A stretch of DNA of 64,000 bases from a virus, in IMG/VR virus record IMGVR_UViG_3300003886_000002. One strand, 5' to 3'. Below the pieces are notes generated by a model. That model did no database searches. It was not told where the DNA came from and saw only the letters and a list, made by a program, of their open reading frames with translations. Positions 6,124 through 46,910 of this stretch are shown piece after piece. The position numbers were made by a program, and so were the translations under genes. Positions within the stretch are counted from its first letter, which is position 1; the number at the start of each line of letters is the position of its first letter.

Positions 6124-9100
6124 TGTTCTGATAGGGGTCTACATCCACCTCATACGCCTTCTCTAATGATCCCACAACGAACCCTGTAGGAACACTCAAT
6201 CCGTTTACCCCTGTACGTATAGGCTTTATGAATGCTGTCGCCATATGGGCTGTAAGCACAACAGACAGGTACTGCGAAGCCGCTTTTGCACGCTCGTCCG
6301 CCATGAAAGGATTCTCACCCTTTACTATAAAGTATTCCCTGACCCAAGCTGTGACATCTACCTCAAGGTTGACCCATGCGTCACGCATGAGATCTTCCTT
6401 GTGAAGATTCATAACGCTGTAGTCATTCTCAGAGAGAACAGAAAGCATCTCATACTTATCGTGCTTGCGGATCTCATCCTTCACAGGCAGATCCGTCCCG
6501 TTCAGTCTAGATATGATTCGATTCGATGCGCGTTCAATAGCTCGTTTCAGCGCAGCATCAGCGGCAGTCTGCAAACGTTCCAGGAGAGCAGCCTCGCCTC
6601 CACCCCCTGGGATACTTGGTCCCCGCGCCTCAGGAACCTGCTGCCCTGTATCAGAATCTGGGATATCTACATCTGTCCCCCCGTCACCCGCCCTTGGCCC
6701 CTGGCCACGCTGACGCGCCTCATTACCCGGAGATGTCAAATCTTCAGGAGTGAAAATGTCCCCTAGATCTGGGTAAAGTTCTCCAATAACCCGTGTACCC
6801 CACAAGATGGGTTCTGAGAACATAAGCTTCTCAAGGGTGCGCCTCTTACGCTCCTCCTCATCAGGGGCATCTGAAACATCGAACCCGTTTGCACGCAGAT
6901 ACGACGCCTCTTTGATAGCTATACGGTCATATGCCCCACGGGCTGCCGGTCCCGTATCTGTACGAGACGTCAACAAGGTTGCATCAAAATTGAGCCTGTA
7001 ACGAGCCGCCTTCTCCTCAGTCATGCTCTCACATGTAATTAGCATCGGACGCAAATACGCAACCGTAAGAAACTCAGCTATCTTCTGACCCTTAGGAACA
7101 ATATGCTTATCAATGAAATCTGCGTCAATGTTGTAGGAGGTCTGCCCCGTATAGACAACCTTGCCGCTACGCCGGATCATCACGCTGTGATGCGGGGGAA
7201 CCGTCGGGCACCAGATCGTGCCCGTATACGATTCGACAGACATCTCCTTCCGCCCCAGGCCGAATGTCGTTTTCCGTGAAATCGACAGCATCGTGCCATT
7301 TTGCTTCGTCTCATAAATATGCGTGGACCGCCCAGAAAGGATGGCTGCCAACTCCAACGGAGCGAGACGATCGCGTTCGGACTGAGTGATGTGCATGGTC
7401 CCTGCGGAGAGAACTGTTCCATCAGCACGAACAGACACATCAATGAACAACTCAATCTGAGATGCCGTCAGGTCATGAATGAATCCCAAATCAAGAACCT
7501 TGCGTTCTGGGTCGGAAAAGAACGGAACCAGCAAGTCCGCTGCGGAAGCGTTCAAACGGAAATCGGTCATGTCGGGACGTTCTGGCCGAATTTGCTCAGC
7601 CCACGCAGGGTCACGCCTCCCTCCGGTCGGACGACCCACGTGACCATCCGTCAAATGCTCTTTGGCATTCCCTAACAAAAGTGTCAAGGAGTTACGAATC
7701 CGCTCGACATGGAAGGGGTTCACCTTATTCGACTGACATATCGATACCTGTGGGGACTGGTCACGATTTTTGAATCGAATGTTCCCTTCAGTCCAGAGCC
7801 ACGCAAGGACCTCGACTAATTCGTCGGACCACTTCATCTCCTTCGGGCGGTCCGATGAAGGGGCTGCCACAAGGAGCGAATCATTTGAGTTGAGTTCTTC
7901 ACTGGTGGTCCAGATACGGTCCTGACCGACCACACGGGATGTTGTGCGGCCATCCACGTCAGTCACATTTTCTCGGATCTTGTGAAGTGTCGGCCAACGG
8001 TGGTCCATCGTGGTCAACGACGAATGTCGGTCACCCTCTATAGAGAGCATCGGTAAATCAACCACGTCGGCTCGGTAAACGTCAGTCGATGGGCGCCACT
8101 CGGTTGCCCCTGTCTCATGGTTCAATGACAGCAGAATGTCCCCCACCTCAAATTCGTCTATCCCCTTCCAACCATCAGTGGTAAGAACCTCCGTCTTGTC
8201 GTCGCAACACCAATGGTTAAGCCCACCCTTTCCACCAATCACTTCTGGAGGGGCGTCCATACCTGTTGCAAGACGCTGTAGCGCCTCTTGACGCAGCGAC
8301 TGGTACAGGGTGTCTAATCCACGTGCAAGGTCTACCAAACCCATCAGGTCCTTAGCAGGCTTGCCGTCGATCATGGCAGGGCCACGCATAAGGAGCGGGA
8401 TCAGCGATGCGGCAGATGTACGGTCTTCGACCGGTGCTTTGATCTGGTCGATCCACTCTTCTGAGAACTCGTCAATTTCGTCAGTATCTGCCCCATCATT
8501 CTCCGTTTCGTCGAATGACCCGAATGAGAACTCGTCGGGAAGATAGTAGATTCCTGCGTTGAGACGACCCTTAGCAATTGCATCCACAACCTGGGTAAGT
8601 AAAACGATTTCACGACAGTTGTGAACCACGACCCCCTGTACAATGAAGTTGGCTGGTCCCGGCACCGTCAGGTCCCATACAGGGGCAACTCCGTCCGGTT
8701 CTACGGACTGCACCCGGGTGACTGCGAACCCGTCCCCGACAGCGCCTTCGTCAGCGGTGACGATGCAATGATCACCAGTGAGTTCCTGGACCTGCACCCA
8801 TTGAACGTCATCTGATGGAACTATTCCCCCGTCACCCACAACATGCTGGGTTGCCAGGATGCGGTGGTCTGCTGTAGCCCGTACAGTGTAGACGCCTGCC
8901 TGAACCTTCAACACGGGTTTGTCACCATTCGCTGTCACGGCAGACACAGGGGAGAGGACGGCGCGCCCACCATCCCACGCCCATACTTCGTCGCCAACAC
9001 TGACATCCTGAATCGCAACTAACCCTAAATCTGTGGAAACCAGTTCTCCTTCTGCTACACAGATGGGGAGCAAACGTTTAACCGCAGAATATGCTCTGTG

Positions 9101-9757
9101 ATAGAAGCGGGGGTCAGGCTGCCATAAGCGTGCTACGTAAGTTTCTTTCGGAAGGTCTACCCGCCCACCTGAGCCTGTCTCCCCGATACGCTGTATCTTG
9201 TTTCCGCTAGGCTTGAGTTCCTCTGTAGACAAGAACTCCCACACAATTCCTTCGTCTACACCTGTAAGCTCATTCTTTATTGGGGTGCCCACAAGGTAGG
9301 ATTCCCCTGCCGTGTACAAGTGTTCTGATGCACGTTTGATAAGTTCTTTCTTCCCCCCCTGCGGACCTACGAAGGCGTCCCATATGCTGTTAACCTTTTC
9401 ATCTGCCGTATCAACCCAGCCGAAATCATTGGCAAGGTCACGTTCTTGTGTCCGTATGACACACGACGATATTGCGTCTGATGTCAACTCAATCAGATAG
9501 CCCAGCTCGCCTATCACCTCTGCAAACCCATACGCGTCCCGCTGCCACGCCTCATTTGGGGTAAGGGGAATCGCAAGATCCCCAAGCTTGGTTAGGCGTC
9601 CCGGAGCAAAAATGGCAGACTGCCCCGGCTTGATGATTGCAAACTCTGCCCCTCGGCCCCGCATGGAACCGCTGCGGCGAAGTGGTCCTTGTCTCGGCAC
9701 GCGTGTAAACCTCTCCACATTCGTTACATCTAGAGCGTAGCCTACTCGGCGACGCAA
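6116..9757 (-). CDS. Portal protein with two inteins (about 709 aa after splicing)
   Basis: Extein motifs HLYTAGESYLVG, RLWQPDPRF...SAVK, RLATGMDAPPEV.G.GGLNHW|TSYNID resemble actinophage portals; sits upstream of the protease. Confidence 0.8.
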   Translation of the reverse strand: MRRRVGYALDVTNVERFTRVPRQGPLRRSGSMRGRGAEFAIIKPGQSAIFAPGRLTKLGDLAIPLTPNEAWQRDAYGFAEVIGELGYLIELTSDAISSCVIRTQERDLANDFGWVDTADEKVNSIWDAFVGPQGGKKELIKRASEHLYTAGESYLVGTPIKNELTGVDEGIVWEFLSTEELKPSGNKIQRIGETGSGGRVDLPKETYVARLWQPDPRFYHRAYSAVKRLLPICVAEGELVSTDLGLVAIQDVSVGDEVWAWDGGRAVLSPVSAVTANGDKPVLKVQAGVYTVRATADHRILATQHVVGDGGIVPSDDVQWVQVQELTGDHCIVTADEGAVGDGFAVTRVQSVEPDGVAPVWDLTVPGPANFIVQGVVVHNCREIVLLTQVVDAIAKGRLNAGIYYLPDEFSFGSFDETENDGADTDEIDEFSEEWIDQIKAPVEDRTSAASLIPLLMRGPAMIDGKPAKDLMGLVDLARGLDTLYQSLRQEALQRLATGMDAPPEVIGGKGGLNHWCCDDKTEVLTTDGWKGIDEFEVGDILLSLNHETGATEWRPSTDVYRADVVDLPMLSIEGDRHSSLTTMDHRWPTLHKIRENVTDVDGRTTSRVVGQDRIWTTSEELNSNDSLLVAAPSSDRPKEMKWSDELVEVLAWLWTEGNIRFKNRDQSPQVSICQSNKVNPFHVERIRNSLTLLLGNAKEHLTDGHVGRPTGGRRDPAWAEQIRPERPDMTDFRLNASAADLLVPFFSDPERKVLDLGFIHDLTASQIELFIDVSVRADGTVLSAGTMHITQSERDRLAPLELAAILSGRSTHIYETKQNGTMLSISRKTTFGLGRKEMSVESYTGTIWCPTVPPHHSVMIRRSGKVVYTGQTSYNIDADFIDKHIVPKGQKIAEFLTVAYLRPMLITCESMTEEKAARYRLNFDATLLTSRTDTGPAARGAYDRIAIKEASYLRANGFDVSDAPDEEERKRRTLEKLMFSEPILWGTRVIGELYPDLGDIFTPEDLTSPGNEARQRGQGPRAGDGGTDVDIPDSDTGQQVPEARGPSIPGGGGEAALLERLQTAADAALKRAIERASNRIISRLNGTDLPVKDEIRKHDKYEMLSVLSENDYSVMNLHKEDLMRDAWVNLEVDVTAWVREYFIVKGENPFMADERAKAASQYLSVVLTAHMATAFIKPIRTGVNGLSVPTGFVVGSLEKAYEVDVDPYQNND
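7142..8209 (-). mobile_element. Intein (356 aa) with LAGLIDADG-like domain, ending Gly-Gln
   Basis: CCDDKTEVLTTDGWK...LTTMDHRW...LAWLWTEG...VRADG...IWCPTVP...VVYTGQ|T. Confidence 0.88.
8618..9061 (-). mobile_element. Mini-intein (148 aa)
   Basis: CVAEGELVST...RATADHRI...VWDLTVPGPANFIVQGVVVHN|C; no endonuclease domain. Confidence 0.92.
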
Positions 9758-25154: not shown

Positions 25155-25253
25155 GTTGCTGACAAGGGAAGTATCTCACACTATCGCGCGCCCGGCAAGG
25201 GTTTTGTTTACCAAACACGCGCTAACAACCGCGAGCGAACACGTGTTCCAGTC
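25155..25253 (-). promoter_or_regulatory. Class I cassette promoter repeat with overlapping ACTGGA/SOS box
   Basis: Near-identical to 27572-27670 and 29287-29378; reads GACTGGAAC-N4-GTTCG...TTG(A/C)C.-17-(-10)-GTCAGCAAC on the minus strand. Confidence 0.85.
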
Positions 25254-25447
25254 CCGGGGGTTGCGCGGCGGCGCCTCTAGTGGGGTGTATCACCTCTCCA
25301 TGCCCTGGCAGGGGCCTACGTGCTGCCACACGTGCACTACACCGGCCTAGTTGGTCGGCTGCGCTTGAGTTGATACACCCCTCTAGAGGCACCCCCGGGA
25401 GGGGCCTAGGTTTCTGTTGCCACCCCCTAGGCGGGGCCGAGTCTTAG

Positions 25448-25576
25448 TCAGTTGGAGTACTCTACGAGCACGGCGCCGCCGCGGGCCTCCACCCATTCTG
25501 CGGCTCTGTCCTCTGCCGCTGAGGTCTTGCGAACCTTGCGGGCCTTCTGTCGCTCTGTGAGCTGACGCTTAGTCAT
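25448..25576 (-). CDS. Small basic protein (42 aa)
   Basis: MTKRQLTERQKARKVRKT...; TACTAT-6-GTCAG start and AAGGGGG RBS. Confidence 0.6.
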   Translation of the reverse strand: MTKRQLTERQKARKVRKTSAAEDRAAEWVEARGGAVLVEYSN

Positions 25577-25832
25577 TCGTTCACCCCCTTGGGACTTGCT
25601 GACATGATGATAGTACCCTACTGGCATGTCGAAAGGCGCGCGAGGGTATTACGGTTGCGTTACAGCATAAATGGAACGAACGTTACATAAATGCTACGCA
25701 TCCAGTCCCGCCCGATGCTGCACGGTGCACCATTGGATCGTAATGAGTCGAACGGCCTATAGTTACGGCTTGCACTGCTAGCCGCTAGCCCCTATAGTGA
25801 TTCATGTCAGCAACCTACCCACAGGAGACCCC

Positions 25833-26273
25833 ATGTCCATAACGTTCGGATTCCACACGGAAGGCCCCCGCGCCTCCGAAACCTTCTGCAATCACACCTG
25901 TCCCATCCCCGGGGGGTGCGATGAGCAACAGCTCTACTTCTACTGTGACCACATGCATGAGGCCACAGAGGCATGCCACAAGTGCGCTCTACGCGTCAAC
26001 CTGTCCAACAGTAACGCAGAGATGGTGCTAGAGCGCCTCGGTATCCCTTTCGACTACTGCGGCACCGTCGCAGCAGACGACATGCTAGGCCGCGCACTAG
26101 TGGCAAACGTAGGGCGCGACGACACCGGCGCAGCCCCCACGGAGGACACCTACGGGCATGCGACCATAGTCGAGTGCGGTGTACCTGAGGGCTACTACGA
26201 GAACGTTATGGGGCGCCTAGTGGCACTAGCGACAGAGGCCAAGTTCAACAACTTTGACATAGGGTGGTCCTAG
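25833..26273 (+). CDS. Hypothetical Cys/His-rich protein
   Basis: TTGCAC-17-TATAGT-GTCAGCAAC promoter; AGGAG RBS. Confidence 0.75.
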   Translation: MSITFGFHTEGPRASETFCNHTCPIPGGCDEQQLYFYCDHMHEATEACHKCALRVNLSNSNAEMVLERLGIPFDYCGTVAADDMLGRALVANVGRDDTGAAPTEDTYGHATIVECGVPEGYYENVMGRLVALATEAKFNNFDIGWS

Positions 26274-26365
26274 CCACTGCGCAACAACTCGCAAGCGTAC
26301 AAGCACGCCGCGCACAGCACCACAGCGGCACAGCACCCCACGCCTTCCAGTCCTACCGGCGGCGC

Positions 26366-26842
26366 CTACCGTGCGATAGGTGGAAGTATCCTAGGGTCGA
26401 CCACCTGCAAGACAGGTAGCCCTATCTCCCGCCACATATCTACCACTTGTTGCCGGTCGTCAACAACGTAGCGGACATCATAGAACGGGGCTATCTGCTC
26501 ACGGTATATCTCTTCTTTCACCACCGAGTCTCTACGTTGGTCACCACCTTTACGCATGATGAGCACGTCAATAGGTAGGGCGTGCTTACGTAGCCACGCG
26601 GTCATCAATAAGCGGCGGTGAGTGTCCCCTACATGGTCTCCCGCCGCACGGCCGCTTGTCATTATGCGCACCACCCCGGGCCGGATAGAACGCAACAGAG
26701 CCGCCACTACAGGTACAGGGGCATCAAAGGGTAGAGCTGCGTTGTATTGCCGCCACGCGCTACCCGAGCGGTCAAGCGGCGCAATGTACGCGACACTAGC
26801 AAGAGTGCCATCACGATCGAAAATAACGGCAGGGGGTCTCAT
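26366..26842 (-). CDS. HAD phosphatase resembling the T4 PNK 3'-phosphatase domain
   Basis: IFDRDGTLA, TSGR, MRKGGDQRRDSVVKEE, DDRQQVVDMWREIGLPVLQV. Confidence 0.9.
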   Translation of the reverse strand: MRPPAVIFDRDGTLASVAYIAPLDRSGSAWRQYNAALPFDAPVPVVAALLRSIRPGVVRIMTSGRAAGDHVGDTHRRLLMTAWLRKHALPIDVLIMRKGGDQRRDSVVKEEIYREQIAPFYDVRYVVDDRQQVVDMWREIGLPVLQVVDPRILPPIAR

Positions 26843-27552
26843 TGGGCTAGCGTAGCGCTCAACCTGAGCCCATCACGAAAGATATGCAAACGCGTCAGAG
26901 CCGGAATGTCGGCCATTAGGTCAAGTGTACCTAACGTGTTGTGAACCATCATACGCTCGACCTCATCGCGTACACGTTCTGCACTCACTAGCCCCAGCAT
27001 GCGGGCCGCATCACGGCTGCATAGCGCATCCCAAGTATCGACCGTAGGCTCTAGGCCCTTGGTTATGCAGAAGCGCAACCCGCGTAGCACGCGTAGCCCG
27101 TCCTCTGCTATGCGCTCCGAAGGATTACCAACGAACCTGAGCACCCCGTTACGGAGGTCGTCTTGACCGCCGTGAGGGTCGATAAGGTCCCCCGTGAGAG
27201 GGTCGCGAGCCATAGCGTTCACGGTGAAATCTCGGCGTGCCAGATCATCGGCTAGCGTGCCGGGCTCCACAAAATCAGGGCGGCGACCGTCGCTACCGGC
27301 GGAATCTTTACGCGCCAGCACAAAATCTGCATCCCGAGTACGTTCCCGCAACACGTGCCCTTTCGGCACCCCTGCGCGGATAGTGACAAACTCAGGATGT
27401 TCCACGTGCAACACGAAACCCTCGGCGACAAGGTGTGAGCGCATGGCTTGGAACGAGGGAGCGATAACGGCAAAGTCGATATCCTTTGTAGGGATACCCA
27501 TGAGGTCATCGCGTACGCACCCCCCTACCTCAAACATTTTGATGTCTGCCAT
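26839..27552 (-). CDS. tRNA nucleotidyltransferase (class II CCA-adding enzyme), short form
   Basis: VGGCVRD, KDIDF, DLARRDFTVNAMA, EDGLRVLRGLRF, VSAERVRDE. Confidence 0.93.
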   Translation of the reverse strand: MADIKMFEVGGCVRDDLMGIPTKDIDFAVIAPSFQAMRSHLVAEGFVLHVEHPEFVTIRAGVPKGHVLRERTRDADFVLARKDSAGSDGRRPDFVEPGTLADDLARRDFTVNAMARDPLTGDLIDPHGGQDDLRNGVLRFVGNPSERIAEDGLRVLRGLRFCITKGLEPTVDTWDALCSRDAARMLGLVSAERVRDEVERMMVHNTLGTLDLMADIPALTRLHIFRDGLRLSATLAQ

Positions 27553-27571
27553 GATCCCCTCCGGGCCGTTG

Positions 27572-27670
27572 GTTGCTGACAGAAAAAGTATACAGCACTA
27601 TCGCGCGTCCGTCAAGGGTTTTGTTTACCAAACACGCGCTAACAGCCGCGAGCGAACACGTGTTCCAGTC
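27572..27670 (-). promoter_or_regulatory. Class I promoter repeat with SOS-like box upstream of the CCA/phosphatase operon
   Basis: TTGACG-17-TATACT-6-GTCAGCAAC; CGAACACGTGTTCC at 27653-27666. Confidence 0.85.
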
Positions 27671-27731
27671 GCCCCGGGGCGGTGTGGGCGCGGCTGTAGG
27701 GTGGGCCGTGAGGCCCGCCCCTACTGCTCTG

Positions 27732-27926
27732 TCAAGGCCCGAATATGTCGCTCGGGTCGTAGGTGAGGGCCTCGCCGCAGTGCTGGCACGTAGTAGCGAG
27801 AGTGTCCTTGTGGCCCTTGTAGTTGACGGCGGCGGCCTCGTCGTAGGTCTCCTTCTCGCAGTGGTAGCACTCGGCGGTAAATGCCACCTCGAAGGGGTAA
27901 TCATCTGTCGCGGGGTAAGCGGGCAT
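27732..27926 (-). CDS. Small Zn-ribbon protein
   Basis: CYHC...CQHC; AGGAGG RBS within a 55-bp repeat (27930-27984 identical to 28936-28990). Confidence 0.7.
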   Translation of the reverse strand: MPAYPATDDYPFEVAFTAECYHCEKETYDEAAAVNYKGHKDTLATTCQHCGEALTYDPSDIFGP

Positions 27927-28162
27927 CAAGACCTCCTGAGGTCTAGGGTTGCTGACAAGGAAAGTATCTCACACTATCGCGCGCCTGTCATGGGCCGAAA
28001 GACCCTACAGGGCACGGCCGAACGGCCCACATGTAAACGTTCCCGTCACCGCGGCGACGGGCATCCAGTCCAGGGGGGTTTAGATGGTTCATGTAGACGG
28101 TTCGCATGGCATTAGGCCGAATGGCCTATGGTGTTGTAGCTCCCCGTGTGAGATACTTTCCT

Positions 28163-28374
28163 TGTAGCAGAGATACACCTTGGCCTAGTGTGAACAGGCC
28201 CCCTCCCCAGGTAAGGGGCGCAGGGAAGCTGCGTAACGTACCCGGCGCCGTGGACCGACAGAACACGGACCGCCTAAGTCTGAGGCGGACAGAATCGGAC
28301 CCTTCCACCGGTTAGTGGCGCAGGGAAGCTGCGTAACGTGCCCGAGATGCCCCGGTGATCTGCACCGGGGCATC
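28163..28374 (+). ncRNA. Candidate ncRNA-2 with two 28-nt hairpin repeats 100 nt apart
   Basis: Class I -10 context GTGTGAGATACTTTCCTTG at 28146-28164; GGCGCAGGGAAGCTGCGTAACGT(A/G)CCCG at 28217 and 28317; terminal hairpin 28346-28374. Confidence 0.6.
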
Positions 28375-28419
28375 GTCGCGCCAACGGTAATGGCCTTCCA
28401 GTCTCCCGGGGGTGGGCGC

Positions 28420-28457
28420 GGCGGTAGGGTCAGACTGTATGGTCTGACCCTACCGCC
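28420..28457 (-). terminator. Perfect 16-bp hairpin terminator
   Basis: GGCGGTAGGGTCAGAC-TGTATG-GTCTGACCCTACCGCC, just past the stop at 28462. Confidence 0.85.
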
Positions 28458-28461
28458 ATCG

Positions 28462-28930
28462 CTAAAGGTTGTAGCGGTCCTCATCCTCCAGCCATGGGTT
28501 GCGGTGCTCGCGCCACGGGGTGCCGTACAGGTCTATCTCCTCATCCTTCCACGCGTCATACGCGTTATCGTCGTCAAAGACGATAGGGCGCCCGGTGGTG
28601 AGGCTCCTGTAGGTTTCGCTCACGGTTGCACCTCACATGCGGCTATGAACAGCTCGCGGTTGAATCGGCTACTGTCTGCTTCACAGAAGTCCGCGAGTAC
28701 GTGAGCCAGCTTTTCGGGACCGATACCCTGTCCAGGTATGCTGGCCACGATAGCGGCTAGCCTTTCGTAGTGCTTACGCGTCATGTCTTGACCTCCCGGT
28801 TGACTGCAACAAGTGCCTCGGCCTCTCGCCGGTCGATACGCAAATACTGTACCTTTGGATGGTGGTACATCTGCCCCCTCAACCGCTCCACAACACTTCG
28901 CACCGTCTCCCGTTGCCTCTCTATGTCCAT
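28462..28930 (-). CDS. Three coupled small ORFs (28781-28930, 28620-28784, 28462-28623)
   Basis: Hand translation; ATGA/GTGA overlaps; middle ORF MTRKHYERLA...SRFNRELFIAAC. Confidence 0.7.
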
Positions 28931-29054
28931 ATCTTGACCTCCTGAGGTCTAGGGTTGCTGACAAGGAAAGTATCTCACACTATCGCGCGCTTGGTAAGGG
29001 CCGAAAGACCCTATCGGGGGTGGCCCGGGGGTGAGCGATCCAGTACAGGTGTAC

Positions 29055-29288
29055 CGAATCGGGCCGGGCCATCGGGTCGCCTACCATCCCCGCATCGGTG
29101 CACCTCCGCGGTTACTCTCGGCTACCGTCTAGCCCGTTCTCCCCGTTCGCTCACCTACTTGGCACATCCATCCACTACCCTTCATTCAGGGATCGCCTAC
29201 CATTCCCAGGTAGGACGTGATCGTTAGCCGTCAGGGGTAGTTTCATATGGCGTGCTTGATGGCACCTCGGGGGTCCCGATTCGTTTAC
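29055..29288 (-). ncRNA. Candidate ncRNA-3 (about 230 nt)
   Basis: TTGACG-17-GAGGCT class I promoter; terminal stem CGAATCGGG/CCCGATTCG; two hairpins sharing the loop ATGGTAGGCGA. Confidence 0.65.
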
Positions 29289-29456
29289 AAGGAAAGCCTC
29301 TCACATTATCGCGCGGCCGTCAAGTGTTTTGTTTACCAAACACGCGCTAACCGCCGCGAGCGAACGTGTGTTCCAGTCACCGCAACTGTGGGGGCCTTCC
29401 AGTCCTTGTGGGTGACGCGCGTGTGAGGCCGACCGTTAGGTCGACCTCACTAGCGT

Positions 29457-29639
29457 CTAGATGTATCCCAGAAGCAGAAGCGGCGAACGGTGCCCATGCG
29501 GGCACCTACCGTCGGGCTCTACGATGCAGCCGTCGGCGGTCTCGGCCACGCCTTCCGACATGATCCCCTCAAGCTCAGAGAAGTCTAGGCCCTCCGCGTA
29601 CTCCACGTCGGCCCGAGCAATCTCGGTGGTATCGTGCAT
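29457..29639 (-). CDS. Small phage protein (DGC.VEPDG.CPHG..S.L motif)
   Basis: Own TTGACA-17-CAGACT promoter; GGAGG RBS. Confidence 0.75.
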   Translation of the reverse strand: MHDTTEIARADVEYAEGLDFSELEGIMSEGVAETADGCIVEPDGRCPHGHRSPLLLLGYI

Positions 29640-29876
29640 TCTCTCACCTCCCTAGAGTTGTGCTGACAAGACAAGTCTGCCAGATAGCGGCTAGCATGTC
29701 AAGCCTAAACGGTAGGCCGAAAGACCCTATCGGGCACGGCCGAACGACCCACGTACAAACGTTCGCCCCCGCCACGTCATCCAGTGCCATCTGGCAGAAC
29801 CGGGTTTTGGGTCTTGACTCACCCCCCATGACGCGCGACACTAGTAGGGATACATCACCTAACGAGAGGTCCGCCT

Positions 29877-30113
29877 ATGCGCACATGGAGACAGACATAC
29901 GCCATGGTAGCTCTACTCGCCCTAGTGGCCCTAGTGCTCACATGGAGAACGGGGTACGATGCCGGGAAAGGTAGCCACCCTACCGACATACCTGTAGAGC
30001 GAACCATTCCAAGCGAACCATCCTGTACCCTATATGAGGATGGCAGCACCTACTGTAACAGTAGCGGCGCCGATGGTTCGGCTTGCATCATACCCGAATG
30101 GGGGTGCCTATAG
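29877..30113 (+). CDS. Membrane-anchored Cys-rich protein, paralog of 34282-34500
   Basis: N-terminal TM helix; CTLYEDGS.YCNS...DGS.CII.EWGCL shared. Confidence 0.75.
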   Translation: MRTWRQTYAMVALLALVALVLTWRTGYDAGKGSHPTDIPVERTIPSEPSCTLYEDGSTYCNSSGADGSACIIPEWGCL

Positions 30114-30785
30114 ACCATCGGGTCCGACCATCCACCCGAACCATCGGACCCCGGGGGGTACTGGAACACGTGTTCGGTCGGATCGGACCATCGGGTCGGA
30201 CCGTCGGATCGGATGATCGGATTTGATGGTATAGGTGATTTGTGCTGATTAGAGACTCTGTATCTAATCATATGTTTGTACCTGATTATAGATACAGTAT
30301 CTAATGAGATCTAACGTATCTAACAAGGGGGGACGCGTCACATGGAAGCGCTAGAGCGGAGCGGCAGAGGCGTAGCCGCGTGTCCCAACGGTAGCGCGAA
30401 GGGCGTCCAAACTGTAGCGTGGCTACACGGTTACATGCCGCCCGGGTGCTGCCCTGCCACTAGGCAAAGCGTGTTAGATGCCCCTGGCCGCTATGTCTCA
30501 TATGTCATACGGTGCACGCTAGACATATGGCAGACGGCCCCTGTCCCCGCATGAAACTACCGACGGCACCCGTAGAGGCAACAAACCCAACCCTACCCTT
30601 GGGGACAGTGGCCGCCTAGAGCCACCTACAGAGGCCACCTGAGGGCACCCGCGGGCTACAGGGGACAGCAGCGACAGTAGCGGCAACGGTACAGGTGGGG
30701 GCGGCGTCACGGCAAAACAGACGTGTGCCCCGTAGGGTGCGCGGAGCATGCCACGCTACCCTACAGGGCACACACCACAGGGAGT

Positions 30786-31163
30786 CTACGTGAGATACTG
30801 TACCATGTTCTCCAGGTACTCCATCACATCACGGTCAGCGGTCCGGATCGTAGCCCCGTCGAACCAATCGGAGAAACGGTACGCCGCGGATGTCTCTGCG
30901 AGTTCCCACCCGTAGGTGCCGCGCTCGATCTCCACCTCCAGCTGATCGCCGGGGCCACCCGTGGACAGGAGCACCACCATAGTGGTATGTGTCTCTATCC
31001 CTAGAGCGTATTCGGCGATCCTATCAAGCGCGTCGTCGGAGGTTACGTCTTCCCCGTCGATCACGCCACCATCCTGATTGATGACGGCGTGCATATGGGC
31101 AAGGTCCTCTATACGGCTACGCAAGTGCCCTTCGATGCGGTCATCGCATGTAGGGTTGCTCAT
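30786..31163 (-). CDS. Acidic protein, paralog of 35109-35489
   Basis: MSNPTC.DR..GHL.SRI.DL...STGGPGDQLE shared; own promoter; AGGAG RBS. Confidence 0.8.
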   Translation of the reverse strand: MSNPTCDDRIEGHLRSRIEDLAHMHAVINQDGGVIDGEDVTSDDALDRIAEYALGIETHTTMVVLLSTGGPGDQLEVEIERGTYGWELAETSAAYRFSDWFDGATIRTADRDVMEYLENMVQYLT

Positions 31164-31366
31164 GCGTTCATCTCCTTTTCGTAGGTGATCTGCTGACACT
31201 CATACCCTCACACATGCGCGCGAAGATGTCAACCCCCGAAACGAAGAATCTTCCACACCCCAAAACCCATAGAACCACCCAGACTGGATCACCACACAGC
31301 ATCCGAAACGTGTGGGACTGGATACCCGATGTCGTAGCGGCCGCGGGGGCTGCTACGGTTACCGCG

Positions 31367-31585
31367 TTACTGTCCCGTGAGGGCAGTTTCGATATCGTCT
31401 GCTATAGCAGCGATCTCTTCTGCGGCGGTCTTGCGGGCCTGTCGGTGCCACCCTATGTCTTGTAGAGCGCAGTCCATGGGGGCTGTAGGTCGATCTGTGC
31501 GACGGTCGGCGTCCCTGATATCCCCTAGGCGCTCCGCTATGCCCTGTAGCGTGCTGAGCCTCCGCATGATTAGTTCCATGTCCAT
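31367..31585 (-). CDS. Hypothetical coiled-coil protein
   Basis: TTGACA-17-TAGAGT-GTCAG promoter; AGGGG RBS. Confidence 0.7.
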   Translation of the reverse strand: MDMELIMRRLSTLQGIAERLGDIRDADRRTDRPTAPMDCALQDIGWHRQARKTAAEEIAAIADDIETALTGQ

Positions 31586-31973
31586 GTCTTTCCCCTGTCG
31601 GTTGGCTTTTGCTGACAACAGAACTCTACCATCGGCGCGCGATGCTGTCAAGCAGATTTTGTAGACCCGAGGGACACGGGCGTCCAGTCACATGAGCCCG
31701 GGCTATCTGCCGCCGCGCCCGGCCGCTACCCCGCAGAGGTAGGCGGCAATCAAAGTAACCCACCATACGGCTAGCAGGGTGGTGGCTACCCCGCCGCTCA
31801 TGGTTCGTCCCCCATGCCTACCCGTAGTTGCACCGCTGGGGTCCGCCACGCCACAACCCCTTGGTGGTAGATGTCCGCGGCACGGTGCGCCGCGTGTATC
31901 CCGTCAGTACCGTTCACCGTGACGGTACGGCCGTCCTCTAGCTTCAGCTCATACGGCCACATAGCTCGCGCGC

Positions 31974-32766
31974 TCACAAGGCGCCCCGATATATAGCGTC
32001 AAACGCATGAGCCGTAGCGTCATCGCTAAGCGCCCCACCATCGGGCCGTACAGGGCCAGGGGACCTATCCGAATACGCATTAGGGCCGTGGCCGCTACGC
32101 ACAAAGCGATGATGCCGCGCACAACACTTGACGGCCGCCCCGATGGTGCGATGCAAAATGCAGCAGCGCCCGGTAACGGGGCCGTAGCAAGTCCAGCGAA
32201 CGTAAACGTTGTTTAGGGCGGTCATCGCCACCACCCCTCGGCTTCCCATTCCCACGGCTCAGCCTCGAACTCAATCACTTCACGTGCACGCCATTCTGCG
32301 CATCCTTGGTGGATCGTCGGGTCATCTACTGACGGCGGCCCGTAGCACTTGACGATGCTCACCGCGGCGTCGGCGTCTATCACGCCAGCCCACCTCGGAG
32401 CGGTCGGGTCGAGAGCTTCCTCACAGATGAGACATACCCCGTTCGCGACGGTCCGGGCGGCGTCCTCGAACTCACGCGTGAGCATGTCGGCGTCGTTGTT
32501 CGGGTCGATCATCGCGCACCCTCGAACAGTACGCGGCCATCATACACCTCAGGGGTGAGACCGGCATCAGCGCACCCCTCTAGGGCAACCGAACCTATGT
32601 CATCCCATATCTCGGCGCTGATAACGCGGGGCCGGATACCGTCGCCCATGAGAAGCACCGAATCGGTGATGTCCAAGACCTTCCCTGTAGCGGGGCAGAA
32701 AATCTCGCGCTGCACCGCGTAGCGGAGAATCTCGCGGTCCGCTATCTCTTGCATCGTATCGCTCAT
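31974..32766 (-). CDS. Three coupled small ORFs (32509-32766, 32222-32512, 31974-32225)
   Basis: ATGA overlaps; AGGAGG RBS behind a class I promoter. Confidence 0.7.
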
Positions 32767-32773
32767 GTCTCGC

Positions 32774-32864
32774 ACCTCCTGATAGATGTTTGCTGACAAA
32801 GAAAGTCTCTCACACTATCGCGCGGCCGTCAAGCGTTTTGTTTACCAAGCACACAGATAGATAC
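32774..32864 (-). repeat. 91-bp perfect direct repeat (promoter plus RBS), second copy 34115-34205
   Basis: Identical by base-by-base comparison. Confidence 0.9.
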
Positions 32865-32943
32865 TCCAGTCCCGGGGCGCCGACACGGGCCGGAGAGTGG
32901 ATGGGTCTCCGGCCCGCGGGGTCAGCGATCTGTACCCGGGGGG

Positions 32944-33366
32944 TTATGCGGCTAGCGCCTGCCGCACCTTCTCGTACTTGACGCGCTCGCCGTCACAGAA
33001 GGTCCAGGGCATAGCTACCCCGGCGACAAAGAATGCATCCCCCATGTAGTCGTACACCGTGACAGGGGCGCCGCCCTCGTCGCTCTGTGCAGATACCACG
33101 GTGCACCACGTGCCCGTATCATCCTCCGGGTGGGTACGGCAATCTCCCAGCGACGGGTTGTGGCGTAGGGCCGTCTGTGCCATCCTGTCTAGCAGGGGGA
33201 TGACAAGCGCCGCTACCCCTTCCGCCGTTTCCCTGTCGGGAAGGTACCCCGTGCTCGTCACGTACGGCGACCCTAGCATGATGTTGCCGAAGTCTAGAGA
33301 GTACCCCTCGGGGTGCTCCTCTTTACCTGCCCCTAGGGCGCCTATAGCGTCTATCACGTCTACCAT
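32944..33366 (-). CDS. Hypothetical protein
   Basis: TTGACA-17-GAGACT-GTCAGCAAC promoter; GAGGAG RBS. Confidence 0.7.
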   Translation of the reverse strand: MVDVIDAIGALGAGKEEHPEGYSLDFGNIMLGSPYVTSTGYLPDRETAEGVAALVIPLLDRMAQTALRHNPSLGDCRTHPEDDTGTWCTVVSAQSDEGGAPVTVYDYMGDAFFVAGVAMPWTFCDGERVKYEKVRQALAA

Positions 33367-33511
33367 CTCGTGCTCCTCTCGGTTGCTGACAAGGGAAGTC
33401 TCCCACGTCCGCGCGAGCATGTCAAGAGGTTTCTCAAATTCCCCCCCAACCCGAACGGGCATCCAGTCCTGTAGGGCCGGTGGGGATGATGGTCCATCCC
33501 CACCATGTGGG

Positions 33512-34108
33512 CTACATGTTCGAGAACACGTACACGGTGCCCGAGGCTACGTGAGTCCAGATGTCGCCGCCCATCTCCCACTCGCGGCCCATGCGCTCCC
33601 AATCCACGTAAGGGGCGAGCATGTCCGTATCGCTGGGGGTACCATGCATCCCGCAGTAGGTGTCATAGGTGTAGTCGCCCAACGAGTCCCACTCGCCGCG
33701 GTAGGCGTCACAGAACAGCTCAGACCACTCCACGGGGTCGTTTGCCTCGTCTTCGCACATACTGTGCCAAGCTGAGAATGCCACGGGGTCATGCTCCGAG
33801 AGGCACCCGGCGAGAGCCACGATAGTCGCTAGCGACTCATGCTCTCCGATACGGATAGAGGCGAACCCCTCATAGTCGTGGATCGCCCACTCTTCTGCAC
33901 CGGGGCGAGGGGAGAACTTGAGCATGCACTCTATGTCCTCCGCCAGATCATCCACGTCTGCCGGAATGTCAAGCCACTCGCCGTACATCTCCCCGTTGTT
34001 GTAGTCGCTCAGACTAGCGACATAGATACGTGGTATGCTGCAACCCCGGGAGTGGCCCGGTTCGGGTACCCCTCGTGGATTGCTGATGGTGGTCTGTAGG
34101 GTGCTCAC
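33512..34108 (-). CDS. ardA: Antirestriction protein ArdA
   Basis: RIYVASLSDYNNG.MYGEWLD, EEWAIHDYEGF, YVDWERMGRE; strongly acidic. Confidence 0.92.
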   Translation of the reverse strand: MSTLQTTISNPRGVPEPGHSRGCSIPRIYVASLSDYNNGEMYGEWLDIPADVDDLAEDIECMLKFSPRPGAEEWAIHDYEGFASIRIGEHESLATIVALAGCLSEHDPVAFSAWHSMCEDEANDPVEWSELFCDAYRGEWDSLGDYTYDTYCGMHGTPSDTDMLAPYVDWERMGREWEMGGDIWTHVASGTVYVFSNM

Positions 34109-34281
34109 TATTGAACCTCCTGATAGATGTTTGCTGACAAAGAAAGTCTCTCACACTATCGCGCGGCCGTCAAGCGTTTTGTTTACCAAGCACACAGATA
34201 GATACAAACATTTGGGCTTGACTTCTGCGATGAGACGCGCGAGACTTGATGTGTCAGATACAACTATTGCCGGAGGTACCT

Positions 34282-34500
34282 ATGAATCGTTGGGAAGCGC
34301 TATACGTCGTCGCCATAACGGTGGTGGCGACCGTACTCATATGGGCGTACACCGTGACCATACACATAGACCATGCAGAAGTGACGGATACGCCGCCGTG
34401 CACCCTATACGAGGATGGCAGCGTCTACTGTAACAGTCCAACCGGGAGCGTACCAGCCGATGGTTCAGGCTGCATCATCCAAGAATGGGGATGCCTATAG
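34282..34500 (+). CDS. Membrane-anchored Cys-rich protein, paralog of 29877-30113
   Basis: GGAGG RBS; TTGACT-17-GAGACT promoter; shared C-terminus. Confidence 0.75.
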   Translation: MNRWEALYVVAITVVATVLIWAYTVTIHIDHAEVTDTPPCTLYEDGSVYCNSPTGSVPADGSGCIIQEWGCL

Positions 34501-34701
34501 GGGTACCCCCCACCCCTATGGGCAGCACCGAACACACGTTCGCCCCTACTGGACACCGACAGGCCAGATATGGGCTGAATGCTCTTTGATACATATAGAT
34601 ACATCTGTTTCTAATAGAGAGTCCTGTATCTAATCGGGATCGTTGTATCTAAACCATGCCGCTACCCTATGGGGAATAACCCATACGGACTCACCGCCAG
34701 G

Positions 34702-34929
34702 TCACACGTCGGTAGCGCAACGCGGACACAGCCCCGTACGGGGGTCGAGCACAACGTCATCGTACTCCCCGCACATACCGCATTCCTCTGGGACACGGTT
34801 CAAACGCCCATAGTCCCCATAGGGATCATAAGAGTCCGATGGATCGGGTTCGCTAGGGTAGTCCCACCCGAGCGGCTCGCCCGCCTCGTTGCGGTACACC
34901 ACTGCACCTGCACCGGGAAACATGCTCAT
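34702..34929 (-). CDS. Small protein with C-terminal Zn finger
   Basis: NEAGEPLGWD...CGMC...CPRC; own promoter; AGGAGG RBS. Confidence 0.7.
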   Translation of the reverse strand: MSMFPGAGAVVYRNEAGEPLGWDYPSEPDPSDSYDPYGDYGRLNRVPEECGMCGEYDDVVLDPRTGLCPRCATDV

Positions 34930-35108
34930 GATTACCCCTCCTGTAGTTGACTATCTGACACTCACATCATCCCACGCCCGCGCGAACATGTCAAGCCCCA
35001 ACCCCCCAACCCCACAGCCCCCACTATGGCATCCAGTGAAACGTCTTGACGTAAAGGAGCCCTGACCCATACAGGCCAGGGCTCCGTCTGATGTGACCGT
35101 GGGGGAGG

Positions 35109-35489
35109 CTAGAACGGGAGGCGTCCCACCATGGACTGTAGATAGTCCATGACTGCATCGTCGTTGGTTCGACGTGTTGCCCCGTCCCCCCAATCCAGGA
35201 ATCGGTAGATGGCGCTGGTGTCGGCCAGCTCCCACCCGTGCCCGTCGTTGATGACTTCGATCTCTAGCTGATCGCCGGGGCCACCCGTGCTGATGGTGAC
35301 GATCAAGGTGGATCGGAGATCAACTGCTAAGGCGTAGTCCTCGATCATGTCGAGCACCTCATCGGAGGTCACCTCTTCCCCCTCGATGACGCCGCCATCT
35401 TCCCCTAGGGCCTCTTGCATCTGCTCAAGGTCCCGGATTCTGCTGGCCAAGTGACCTGCTACCCGATCTTCACATGTAGGGTTACTCAT
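35109..35489 (-). CDS. Acidic protein, paralog of 30786-31163
   Basis: Shared motifs as above; GAGGAGG RBS. Confidence 0.8.
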   Translation of the reverse strand: MSNPTCEDRVAGHLASRIRDLEQMQEALGEDGGVIEGEEVTSDEVLDMIEDYALAVDLRSTLIVTISTGGPGDQLEIEVINDGHGWELADTSAIYRFLDWGDGATRRTNDDAVMDYLQSMVGRLPF

Positions 35490-35796
35490 GCGTTCACCTC
35501 CTCTAGTGACTTGCTGATAAGGGAAGCGTCTCACACTATCGCGCGGCCGTCAAGGGGGATCTTTAGAATCTTCCAACAACAGAATATGTCGACACTCCAC
35601 CTACACGCTCGGGGAACCATGGTGCAGGCAGAACCATCGTGACTGGATGCCAACCCACCGGGACTGGATAACCTTTATGGTTGTTTGGGCTGTGGGGGTT
35701 GTGTTGGGTGGAGAATTTTGAGAAACCCCTTGACTGCCGCGCGAGCATGTGGTTTACTTTTGCTGTCAGCAACAACCCCACAGAAGGAGATGACCT

Positions 35797-36684: not shown

Positions 36685-37659
36685 ATGAGCGCTGAAGCGG
36701 TCGGCTGGGTCTACAAACACTCCCCGTATGACGGAGTGAACTTCGCAGTACACCTCGCTACAGCAGACTCGGCCAATGATCTACACGAATACGAGATATG
36801 GGCAAGACAGCAGTGGATCGCGGACAAGGCGCGGGTGTCACGCTCGGGGGTCAACAGGTTCATCAAGCAGGCTATAGATGATGGTCTCCTGCTTTTGATG
36901 GAAGACAACAGTCGTGCAGGGCATGCCAACAGGTACCGGCTTTTGATGCCTGATGATACCCCAAAGGCGTGGTCCCCATCCACAGATACTACCCCACGGG
37001 TAGGTGTCGCACCACGCTACACCCCCCCCAATAGTACCCCGTGCCTAGGTGTAGCACCACACGACAGGGGGTGTAGCACCACGCTACAGGGGGTGTCGCA
37101 CCACGCTACACATAACCCAAGAGAACCCAACAGTAACCCAACCAATACGTCGGCTCCGCCTCCTGCGACTCCTTCGGAGCCGCGCGTCTTTGATGATGAC
37201 GGACTGGAACAAGTTTTAGAATCAGGAAGCGCTGAGACTGGATCAAGCGTTGACCGCGATGACTGTGTGGACAGGTTTGATAAATCTGGGCGCGCGCGCG
37301 AAATGTGTGACATGCTGGCGCGCGCGATTGAAAGTGAACATGGGTTCACCCCTAAGGTGACCGACACCCAATGGGTGCGGCCCATGGACCTGCTGTTGCG
37401 GCGTGGGGCTACAGAGTGGGCTGACCCTAAACCTATTGACCGCGAGCGGGTGGAAATGATGATCGGGTATGTTTACACTTACGGGACCGAAGGGGACCGG
37501 TTCCGTTGGGCAGACCAAATCAAGTCCCCTATGGCCCTCAGACGCCATTGGGAGAAGCTTCGGGTGTGGGCTAACAGAGAACACCAGGCAAGGGCTAAGG
37601 GCGCAACACAGGGGTCAATCAGCGAAGCGTGGATGGTGAGGTCAGGGACAAGTGGGTAA
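36685..37659 (+). CDS. HTH replication initiator (replisome-organizer-like)
   Basis: MSAEAVGWV..HSP...VHLATADSAND...IADKARVSRSGVNR...NRYRL N-terminus; FRWADQIKSPMALRRHWEKL C-terminus; internal iterons. Confidence 0.82.
   Translation: MSAEAVGWVYKHSPYDGVNFAVHLATADSANDLHEYEIWARQQWIADKARVSRSGVNRFIKQAIDDGLLLLMEDNSRAGHANRYRLLMPDDTPKAWSPSTDTTPRVGVAPRYTPPNSTPCLGVAPHDRGCSTTLQGVSHHATHNPREPNSNPTNTSAPPPATPSEPRVFDDDGLEQVLESGSAETGSSVDRDDCVDRFDKSGRAREMCDMLARAIESEHGFTPKVTDTQWVRPMDLLLRRGATEWADPKPIDRERVEMMIGYVYTYGTEGDRFRWADQIKSPMALRRHWEKLRVWANREHQARAKGATQGSISEAWMVRSGTSG
37003..37111 (+). repeat. Iteron-like repeats GGTGT(A/C)GCACCAC...ACA x4 inside the initiator gene (putative origin)
   Basis: Copies at 37003, 37048, 37070 and 37092; 22-bp period for the last three. 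Confidence 0.8.
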
Positions 37660-45579: not shown

Positions 45580-45945
45580 CTACAGTAGCCCTCCTGTGTT
45601 GTGAACCCACCGTTCGATCTCCCGCACTGAGGCACGAGTCGGCGGGGCAGCATGTCGCATCGAAGTACAATCAGGGCAATACTCGTCGCCATTCTTCCCC
45701 TGCACCATATGCGAGTTATCACAGGTGTCGCACTCCCCCACCATCGCGTTCCCCACGATGGTGCGGCTGGCGCTTTCGATCGCTTGCGACAGGCTCCTGA
45801 CTAGGGTGTGCGCGTCTGGGACAGACATGACTCCCAAGTCGATCCGGTTACTCTCACCAGACCCGACAGGCGAAAGCGATGCTTCGACTCTGATTAGATG
45901 ATGCGCCGCTGTGACACAAATCGTGACTATCTCCTTGTCGTTCAT
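45580..45945 (-). CDS. Hypothetical protein with CxxC...CPDC
   Basis: ATGA-coupled to the upstream LbH protein. Confidence 0.65.
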   Translation of the reverse strand: MNDKEIVTICVTAAHHLIRVEASLSPVGSGESNRIDLGVMSVPDAHTLVRSLSQAIESASRTIVGNAMVGECDTCDNSHMVQGKNGDEYCPDCTSMRHAAPPTRASVREIERWVHNTGGLL

Positions 45946-46910
45946 ATCGTTTCTCCTGCCGCGATGTCCCCGGTCACATGTGCGTCACCGAGCACCCGGG
46001 CGTCGCCGTGCACCCAAGCACTACTGAACACCCGAGCGTTGCCGGACACCCGGGCGCCACCGTACACCAGCGCGTTGTCGTACACCTGAGCGTTGCCGGA
46101 CACCTGAGCGTTGCCGAACACCTTGGCGTTTCCGTGCACCGCAGCGTCGCCAAACACCCGGGCATCACCGTACACCCGAGCGTTGCCGAACACCTGAGCG
46201 TTGCCGAACACCCAAGTATCACCGAGCACCCGGGCGTCGCCGTGCACCCAAGCACTACTGAACACCCAAGCGTTGCCAAACACCTGAGCGTCAGGGCCGA
46301 TTGCCGCAGTGCCAGCCACTGTGGCGCTGTCCGCGACCCACCCACCCTCAGACTCATCAGGGTTGACGTGACGGCGCGCCGCCACCGGACCTTCACCGAA
46401 GTCATGCATGACAACGTTTCGATATGTGGATGCCCGCAGCTGTGCTAGACATCCCTGTAGAACCCCGGCCATCTCCGCGATCGACGCGTATGCATTTCGC
46501 ATCTTCTTTACGTCGCCTCCGGCTACAAGCTCATCTACAAGTTCGCTCACCACATCTGGAGATACGATCATACGGATTGCTTCCGCTGTCTCGTCTGTGG
46601 CGAACCATGCTGTCTCGCCGTCCACAAGGGGCCGTTCTCGACTGAATGCCGCTACCGCTGTGCGTATGTTGCCTACGGTTATGTCACTCGGCCCGATAGG
46701 GGTTGAATCGTGGTCATACGGCATCCACCCGTCCGTGCATCCGGCGAACGGTGCGAGTGCTGCCTGTAGACATTCGATCTTTGTAGCTGCGTCACGGAGC
46801 AGCGCTGCGTTTGCCCGCAGATCCAGAGCGCTAGTGCCTACGGCCGTTCTGGCCTGTGTGATTATCCCGTGGGCCTTGAGGTGTAGCCGTTCGATCAGGT
46901 TGTCGTTCAT
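45942..46910 (-). CDS. Protein with C-terminal left-handed beta-helix hexapeptide repeats
   Basis: HDFGEGPV..RHVNPD.SEGGWVAD followed by (G N/D A Q/R/W V F/Y/H)n repeats. Confidence 0.85.
   Translation of the reverse strand: MNDNLIERLHLKAHGIITQARTAVGTSALDLRANAALLRDAATKIECLQAALAPFAGCTDGWMPYDHDSTPIGPSDITVGNIRTAVAAFSRERPLVDGETAWFATDETAEAIRMIVSPDVVSELVDELVAGGDVKKMRNAYASIAEMAGVLQGCLAQLRASTYRNVVMHDFGEGPVAARRHVNPDESEGGWVADSATVAGTAAIGPDAQVFGNAWVFSSAWVHGDARVLGDTWVFGNAQVFGNARVYGDARVFGDAAVHGNAKVFGNAQVSGNAQVYDNALVYGGARVSGNARVFSSAWVHGDARVLGDAHVTGDIAAGETI

Follow-up and report, generated by a model that had tools for sequence, protein, structure and literature searches.

A structured phage RNA with a covarying palindromic loop and a predicted homodimeric form

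New bacterial or phage RNA classes with as much conserved structure as the one described here are rare. Among those closest to it, ROOL (RF03087) and GOLLD (RF02032) are likewise phage-borne, comprise many covarying helices and strongly conserved junctions, and have no linked protein; a review describes both as self-associating through kissing loops (see also PMC12286853). The ARRPOF RNA of Fusobacterium plasmids is a 255-nt homodimer held together partly by a kissing loop, and the prohead RNA (pRNA) of phage phi29 is phage-encoded, has ends that form a long helix, and possesses a loop-loop linking domain. Here, positions 29055–29283 on the minus strand of IMG/VR virus record IMGVR_UViG_3300003886_000002 (a stretch of 64,000 nucleotides, referred to as a whole as the window) are identified as the gene for a stand-alone structured RNA, which is closest in kind to ROOL, GOLLD, and the ARRPOF dimer, and a member of none of them.

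With ~230 nt, the window RNA resembles ARRPOF in size and falls short of full-length ROOL and GOLLD (550–833 nt as listed in the review). It contains one self-complementary element, from which a dimer is predicted, whereas ROOL and GOLLD assemble into a cage of 6 to 14 subunits. The ROOL and GOLLD covariance models did not match it, and its homo-oligomeric state is predicted from a covarying loop. Unlike ROOL and GOLLD, it has no regular tRNA neighborhood, and it was not found in 150 other sampled genomes of the phylum of the one bacterial metagenome-assembled genome (MAG) found to carry it. ARRPOF, an Rfam family, resides on plasmids of Fusobacterium and the window RNA on phages; no sequence likeness between them was seen, and there was no Rfam match. 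The loops through which pRNA molecules interact, building rings on the portal, differ from each other, whereas the window RNA has one self-complementary loop; to our knowledge, pRNA is confined to phi29-like phages. It, too, gave no Rfam match to the window RNA, and packaging genes are not regular neighbors of the latter. In the dimerization initiation site of HIV-1, a GC-rich palindrome lies in a hairpin loop with unpaired flanking purines, and variants of this site stay self-complementary (e.g., GCGCGC and GUGCAC). There, a loop of 9 nt on the RNA genome of a virus holds a 6-nt palindrome; in the window RNA, the palindrome has 8 nt within a 14-nt loop of a small RNA from a DNA phage.

The 251-nt stretch around the RNA folded with −102.1 kcal/mol, compared with a mean of −86.9 kcal/mol for 200 dinucleotide shuffles (z = −2.87), none of which folded as well. 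Its architecture is a three-way junction, composed of a stalk (P1) and two arms (P2–P6 and P7–P9). All helices, P1–P9, form in the window and covary across the family of related RNAs described below. The parts of the RNA are as follows (percentages are the fraction of alignment cells that pair):
29055–29283, minus strand: structured RNA from P1 to P1, 229 nt, starting with CGAAUCGGG and ending with CCCGAUUCG
29275–29283, minus strand: P1, 5′ strand CGAAUCGGG, pairing with 29055–29063
29055–29063, minus strand: P1, 3′ strand CCCGAUUCG, partner of CGAAUCGGG
29268–29272, minus strand: P2, 5′ strand CCCCG, pairing with CGGGG at 29141–29145 (62.4%)
29258–29263, minus strand: P3, 5′ strand GCCAUC, pairing with GGUG(A)GC at 29149–29155 (89.9%)
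29247–29255, minus strand: P4, 5′ strand GCACGCCAU, pairing with AUGG(A)UGUGC at 29162–29171
29235–29241, minus strand: P5, 5′ strand ACUACCC, pairing with GGGUAGU at 29174–29180 (95.4%)
29218–29234, minus strand: P5/P6 internal loop, 5′ side CUGACGGCUAACGAUCA, nearly invariant (alignments A3 and A4)
29194–29217, minus strand: P6 hairpin, CG(U)CCUACC, loop UGGGAAU, and GGUAGGCG, of variable length
29181–29193, minus strand: P5/P6 internal loop, 3′ side AUCCCUGAAUGAA, nearly invariant
29132–29136, minus strand: P7, 5′ strand CGGGC, pairing with GCCCG at 29065–29069 (84.8%; double changes in 5 of 5 pairs)
29120–29126, minus strand: P8, 5′ strand GGUAGCC, pairing with GGCGACC at 29075–29081, with one A·G mismatch
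29112–29119 and 29082–29089, minus strand: P8/P9 internal loop, GAGAGUAA and GGAUGGUA, purine-rich and kept across the family
29108–29111, minus strand: P9, 5′ strand CCGC, pairing with GCGG at 29090–29093 (95.2%; double changes in 4 of 4 pairs)
29094–29107, minus strand: P9 terminal loop, 14 nt, GGAG-GUGCAC-CGAU, with the palindrome GGUGCACC at 29097–29104

The stalk P1 is paired in 91.9% of cells, and its inner six pairs all change on both sides; it comprises 9 bp (perhaps 13) in the window and about 25–35 bp in most relatives, in which its sequence varies from phage to phage. The register of P2 is ambiguous by one base, mutual information favoring the pairing one base over (columns 10/309 and 11/308). 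In P3, the bulged A is kept across the family and one pair is AU in 19 and GC in 18 cases. Helices 4 and 5 of the family model, which correspond to P4 of the window, are paired to 82.3% and 77.6%, respectively, and eight of their nine pairs change on both sides, as do five of seven in P5 (the other two never vary) and seven of eight in P6 (92.3% paired). P8 is paired in 68.5% of cells, and all seven of its pairs change on both sides, which is also apparent by eye from swaps such as GGU/ACC in the window, GAC/GUC in locus L048, and GCA/UGC in locus L051. The P5/P6 internal loop, for which the family consensus is CUGACGGCUAACGAYCA facing AYCCCUGAAYGAA, is the best candidate for a functional site (29218–29234 plus 29181–29193), and the P8/P9 internal loop may contain noncanonical pairs. 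A resemblance between CGAGAGUAACC..GGAG and the sarcin-ricin loop of 23S rRNA, seen by eye, was discarded because the covariation of P8 is incompatible with a local sarcin-ricin hairpin.

Relatives of the RNA were described by a covariance model, R1, of 223 positions and 57 pairs, built from 16 seed sequences with a structure taken from the window fold and from comparison by eye. R1 matched the window end to end (model positions 1–223, bases 29058–29280) with 244.1 bits and an E-value of 1.4e-48 (cmsearch), a match that is partly by construction, the window being one of the seeds; non-seed members reached full-length scores between 55.7 and 163 bits. Among 41 sources, that is, the distinct sequences left after removal of duplicates, 39 contained a total of 46 matches. 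In the two without any, L023 and L032, none of the other conserved blocks is present, and both were dismissed as chance pattern matches. Besides the full-length R1 match, the window shows the other traits that define the family, namely the P1–P9 junction and a P9 palindrome of 6–8 nt in the context GGAG...GAU/GAA.

When the model-based alignment (45 distinct rows) was analyzed, 84.4% of 2209 cells were able to pair, compared with 57.9% after shuffling and 34–40% when the partners were slid against each other; double changes occur in 50 of 57 pairs, and none of 500 shuffles attained the observed value on any of five measures. This alignment was fitted to R1 and hence leans toward the R1 structure. 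The model-free alternative, a MAFFT alignment of 16 sequences, yielded 80.5% pairing (62.9% shuffled, 32–43% slid) and double changes in 47 of 60 pairs; the annotated pairs also rank top in a structure-blind scan for mutual information. Covariation in homologs, named as a check in a preliminary description of the locus, is strong in these analyses. The closing helix CGAAUCGGG (29283–29275)/CCCGAUUCG (29063–29055) and the long-range helices GCACGCCAU/AUGG(A)UGUGC and ACUACCC/GGGUAGU, which that description had read from the letters, are real and covary. Because G-U and U-G cells (151) outnumber A-C and C-A cells (58), it is the minus strand that is read as RNA.

The terminal loop of P9 usually has 14 nt, in the form GGA, G-NNNNNN-C, and then GAU or GAA. 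A perfect palindrome of at least 8 nt was present in this loop in 32 of 40 aligned rows, and one of at least 6 nt in 36 of them; in 1000 shuffles of the loops, the latter was obtained on average in 7.2 (at most 16) of 40. The palindromes amount to about ten different sequences, among them GGUGCACC, GUGGCCAC, GUGCGCAC, GCGGCCGC, GCUGCAGC, GUCCGGAC, and GUUGCAAC. Treated as pairs, 97.0% of 133 loop cells are complementary (66.3% when shuffled), with 32 double changes as opposed to 8.7 in shuffles. As the two central bases of the palindrome are adjacent and cannot pair within one loop, this pairing must be intermolecular. Loci L011 and L018, otherwise near-identical, differ by a change of the palindrome from GUGGCCAC to GUCCGGAC, and where two paralogs of the RNA lie side by side, both carry the same palindrome (GCGGCCGC in L033, GUGCGCAC in L036); joint changes of this kind are to be expected if the copies pair with each other. 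The calculated self-duplex energies of eight 8-nt palindromes range from −12 to −20 kcal/mol (−17.3 kcal/mol for GGUGCACC of the window), and those of two 6-nt palindromes are −9.5 and −8.1 kcal/mol. A kissing-loop dimer formed via the P9 palindrome is therefore predicted from the sequences of the family. A covarying palindrome of this kind is an unusually clean natural signature of RNA–RNA dimerization, and the RNA would add a small member to the recently recognized self-assembling natural RNAs.

The RNA belongs to an uncatalogued and unpublished phage RNA family. No Rfam 15 family matched at its gathering score anywhere in the window, which makes the RNA new to Rfam 15 and answers the Infernal/Rfam check named in the preliminary description; nothing was found at E ≤ 10 on 28700–29700, or at E ≤ 1 on the RNA in six other loci. 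OLE, raiA, and HEARO, like ROOL, GOLLD, and all other Rfam 15 families, gave no covariance-model match, and full-text literature searches, which did not extend to supplements, retrieved no published description. The window itself is a piece of a phage genome with 57% G+C that encodes a portal protein, a MuF-like protein, DnaB, SSB, and methylases; a megablast search with 20 kb of it against 50,697 phage records brought up no close relative. A 69-nt core of the RNA, however, was found by blastn with 80% identity in 196 records of Mycobacterium phages of about 154–157 kb, which presumably represent Cluster C. The core falls within ~360 nt that carry no annotation in phage Issimir and two small hypothetical open reading frames (ORFs) in Asterius. 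In the ~155-kb phages, the RNA has ~410 nt, a P1 of ~26 bp, and a z-score of −4.71, with one insertion of ~115 nt in P6 and another between the arms. It overlaps the start of gene 66 in Issimir (L001, about 1481–1886), and genes 66 and 67 in Asterius (L002). These hypothetical ORFs are probably spurious calls, and the RNA accounts for a persistent annotation gap in the carrier genomes. It has gone unannotated in nearly 200 cultured mycobacteriophages; as these are genetically tractable and can be grown on a harmless laboratory host, its function is directly testable.

Scans with exact words added IMG/VR contigs, 40 metagenome loci, and two loci from species-representative genomes, one of the latter being the MAG contig (its RNA core is identical to that of IMG/VR contig L009). 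Collecting in this way biases the family sample toward invariant words. The other of the two species-representative loci, in a Prevotella MAG, was rejected as a chance match. Across 151 genomes of the phylum of the carrier MAG, for each of which 15 candidates were scored, R1 matched once, in the MAG itself. On the related contigs L033 (2650–2867, minus strand) and L036 (2110–2328, minus strand), a second, divergent paralog of the RNA lies beside the first; it lacks the invariant word CUGACGGCUAACGA and has the fold and palindrome of its neighbor. A 14-nt word from the divergent paralogs retrieved 120 loci, and none of the 100 scanned with R1 was real. In Mycobacterium phage Phabba (H41/H42, 2979–3042), a weak blastn match (E = 0.06) to the 5′ part of the RNA of L006 was noticed; Phabba may be a cultured carrier beyond the 196 records.

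The immediate surroundings of the RNA gene are marked by a promoter-like repeat, the presence of which upstream of the RNA had been noted previously, and by further elements:
29331–29341, minus strand: inverted repeat GTTTGGTAAAC, preceding the promoter repeat
29299–29314, minus strand: promoter-like repeat, core GCGCGATAATGTGAGA, one of seven copies, closely preceding the RNA
28998–29026, minus strand: GC-rich hairpin without a U-tract, after the RNA and before the next promoter copy
28973–28988, minus strand: next copy of the promoter repeat, driving a 49-codon ORF (28781–28930) with an AGGAGG ribosome-binding site (RBS)

The word GCGCGATARTGTGAGA of this repeat occurs seven times in the window, compared with 0.87 expected by chance, and all copies are on the minus strand within 25174–35544. 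This region holds a run of small genes in which the repeated unit reads TTGACG, 9 nt, TAGTGT, GAGA..CTTTCCTTGTCAGCAA, RBS, and start codon. In the copy at the RNA, TTGACG is found at 29323–29318 and TAATGT at 29308–29303. In the aligned copies, the six others are followed ~40 nt later by the RBS and start codon of small genes; the one at 29299–29314 is directly followed by P1 of the RNA, before which, by a few bases, transcription would start. A scan for the sigma-70 consensus found no classical promoter; because the spacing of the unit is unlike that of classical sigma-70 promoters, phage-specific or otherwise unusual recognition is possible. The inverted repeat, G(T/C)TTGGTAAAC, precedes four of the seven copies if a one-base variant is included (the others are those at 25189, 32823, and 34164); it looks like an operator and is probably what the preliminary description called an SOS-like box. 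The hairpin at 28998–29026 may be a terminator: 28988–29056 folds with −23.5 kcal/mol (z = −1.57), and a hairpin of this kind is also found ahead of the promoter copy at 27982, although a simple terminator scan did not call the one at 28998–29026. With its own promoter copy and a further one standing before the next gene, the RNA constitutes a transcription unit in its own right.

A 23-codon ORF is indeed present within the RNA (29175–29246, minus strand), as had been stated, and the view that it is not the point of the locus is borne out by the covarying structure and by the homologs, in which neither a start codon nor the frame is kept. The column of its ATG holds a start codon in a minority of homologs, many having none there; indels in P6 cause frameshifts; and the conserved 3′ side of the P5/P6 loop (29181–29193) falls in all three frames with respect to this ORF. 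It was thus judged not to be a gene.

The preliminary description had further proposed that an 11-mer, AUGGUAGGCGA, is displayed twice as the loop of hairpins on different stems, which was taken as a sign of selection on RNA structure, as in a bivalent decoy or a guide-like RNA. The word does occur twice, at 29203–29193 and 29087–29077, at places other than hairpin loops:
29193–29203, minus strand: first AUGGUAGGCGA, comprising two loop bases and the 3′ strand of P6, and one base of the P5/P6 loop
29077–29087, minus strand: second AUGGUAGGCGA, comprising the end of J9/8 (AUGGUA), then five bases of the P8 3′ strand

The two proposed hairpins were paired in 52.9% of cells, compared with 49.9% when shuffled and up to 49.6% when slid (MAFFT alignment A4, 16 sequences), and they compete with P6, P8, and P9, which covary. 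Among 33 members, a word of at least 9 bases is repeated at the two sites in the window alone; in the others, the repeat spans at most 7 bases and mostly 3–5. Five of the 11 bases, GGCGA, are kept at both sites for separate structural reasons, and the other six match in the window only. When the P6 5′ strand was matched to the second site instead, the energy was the same within and between members (−8.0 kcal/mol each), whereas the true P6 partner gave −9.8 kcal/mol within and −6.2 kcal/mol between members. What stands is a promoter-driven, closed, structured, noncoding RNA whose covarying fold is under selection, and not the argument from twin loops. A two-headed RNA is plausible, by way of the palindromic P9 loop instead, and guide-like complementarity was not found.

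The search for a partner or function comprised Pfam on 29 ORFs of the window and on 105 of the 205 ORFs around 36 loci, PHROGs on 21 ORFs of the window, and blastp; no protein family was found to go with the RNA. Synteny between the window and the loci with the most similar RNAs was limited to a few scattered small genes. P1 provides the inverted repeats expected of a retron msr-msd, but no reverse-transcriptase domain was present among the scanned neighbors. ARAGORN detected no tRNA or transfer-messenger RNA (tmRNA) anywhere in the window. At locus L008, a phage tmRNA (589–917, minus strand, corresponding to 37060–37385 of G004) lies about 400 nt downstream of the RNA; it scored 46.7 bits in Rfam, where the gathering score is 47, and was also called by ARAGORN. 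A near-threshold tRNA is likewise found downstream there, which makes for a small cluster of stable-RNA genes.

Taken together, we consider it somewhat probable that the locus encodes a stand-alone phage RNA of ~230 nt that pairs with itself via its palindromic loop and serves as a dimeric scaffold or decoy in trans. The transcript would begin a few bases ahead of P1, at the promoter repeat, and end at the hairpin 28998–29026; the 8-nt palindrome GGUGCACC would then form an intermolecular duplex, resulting in a symmetric homodimer and, in phages with two paralogs, in a heterodimer as well. The long P1 stalks of the relatives might permit excision from longer transcripts, and the invariant loops might bind a host or phage factor while the dimer acts during infection. 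A cis-regulatory role is unlikely in view of the additional promoter copy and of downstream genes that vary between loci. Several points weigh against this reading. The role as scaffold or decoy is a guess, reached by elimination and analogy, and dimerization is predicted from sequence covariation. In 4 of 40 rows, the aligned P9 loop holds a palindrome of at most 4 nt or none, some of these rows being alignment failures in members with insertions. The invariance of the P5/P6 loop words is partly circular, as the scans by which the collection was made required them. The neighboring genes vary between loci (encoding, e.g., portal, tail tube, DNA polymerase A, endolysin, or ArdC-like proteins), there is no consistent linkage to tRNAs, and blastp at E = 1e-5 found no protein family common to the window and all five whole contigs (2993 ORFs, crudely called; distant relatives are missed at this threshold). 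Finally, the sole exact match to the complement of the invariant loop in one bacterial MAG (G006) was the RNA gene itself, and matches with one or two mismatches (13 forward, 12 reverse) were near the control rate (8 and 7). A bolder version, which we regard as doubtful, sees a novel class of RNA-only machines of virulent phages of high-GC hosts, in which the palindrome is a fast-evolving address and the dimer presents its invariant loops for catalysis or host takeover. If true, the RNAs of each phage would pair only with their own kind, a heterodimer of paralogs would present two different heads, and no dedicated protein would be needed.

The main rival is a ribozyme, self-processing or acting in trans, with the P5/P6 loop as active site and the dimer as active form. 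Some 30 nearly invariant unpaired bases within a covarying scaffold are typical of catalytic or ligand-binding cores, a protein partner was not found, and group-II-derived HYER ribozymes dimerize by palindromic pairing, as stated in a review; yet no Rfam ribozyme family matched, no conserved context of a cleavage site was recognized by eye, and the invariance of the loop is inflated by the search patterns. We consider a ribozyme unlikely. That the RNA serves as a unit of some larger assembly made of RNA only, as a small relative in kind of ROOL and GOLLD, or a virion RNA like pRNA with the long P1 as a handle, appears quite unlikely. It is phage-borne and ornate and has a self-complementary loop, ROOL, GOLLD, and prohead RNA are all kissing-loop oligomers according to the review, and in L012, the RNA lies directly downstream of a portal gene. 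However, a single self-complementary element leads to dimers rather than to rings or cages, the P6 loops are nonpalindromic by eye, mutual information shows no further long-range partner, a packaging gene neighbors the RNA in 1 of 18 loci scanned, and the carrier phages examined have ordinary portal genes.

A cis-acting leader or riboswitch could be suspected from the small same-strand gene downstream and from the strongly conserved, aptamer-like core. It is disfavored, and we hold it to be very improbable, because the hairpin and a full second promoter copy precede the next start codon, the genes downstream differ between loci, P1 encloses the whole RNA and leaves no expression platform, and no riboswitch family matched. 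Of still lower credibility is a monomer that works as a bivalent decoy or guide by displaying one 11-nt loop on two different stems: despite the fact that the 11-mer is truly duplicated (the chance of which in ~230 nt is roughly 0.006 by our own estimate, assuming uniform composition), its hairpins pair like shuffles and clash with P6, P8, and P9, its repeat is peculiar to the window, and the family shows no alternative pairing of this kind. Hardly credible at all, and disfavored as well, is an element acting at the DNA level, be it an origin, a binding site for a protein, or a mobile element bounded by terminal inverted repeats; the same holds for a small protein gene. The long P1 does resemble terminal inverted repeats and the 23-codon ORF exists, but the sequence is variable in the arms of P1 and conserved in the core, which is the opposite of a transposon, G-U cells exceed A-C cells, and the ORF keeps neither its start nor, due to the insertions and deletions in P6, its frame.

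Further genes of the window were noted in passing. On the minus strand, 1.5–2.7 kb downstream of the RNA (26366–27552), adjacent genes encode a PolyA_pol-head (CCA-adding-like) nucleotidyltransferase and a PNKP-type phosphatase, a pair reminiscent of RNA repair; an all-vs-all blastp of the window and five contigs did not find this pair near the RNA elsewhere. The portal protein (1213 aa; 6116–9757, minus strand; PHROG portal, E = 1.6e-69) probably contains an intein, with intein/Hint matches below the Pfam cut-offs. A 1208-aa protein (2497–6123, minus strand) has an N-terminal 2H/LigT phosphoesterase domain, and the rest of this fusion matches PHROG families of portal protein, head maturation protease, and virion structural protein. 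YdcK β-solenoid repeats are present in three proteins, encoded at 45942–46910, 50432–51490, and 56131–57243.

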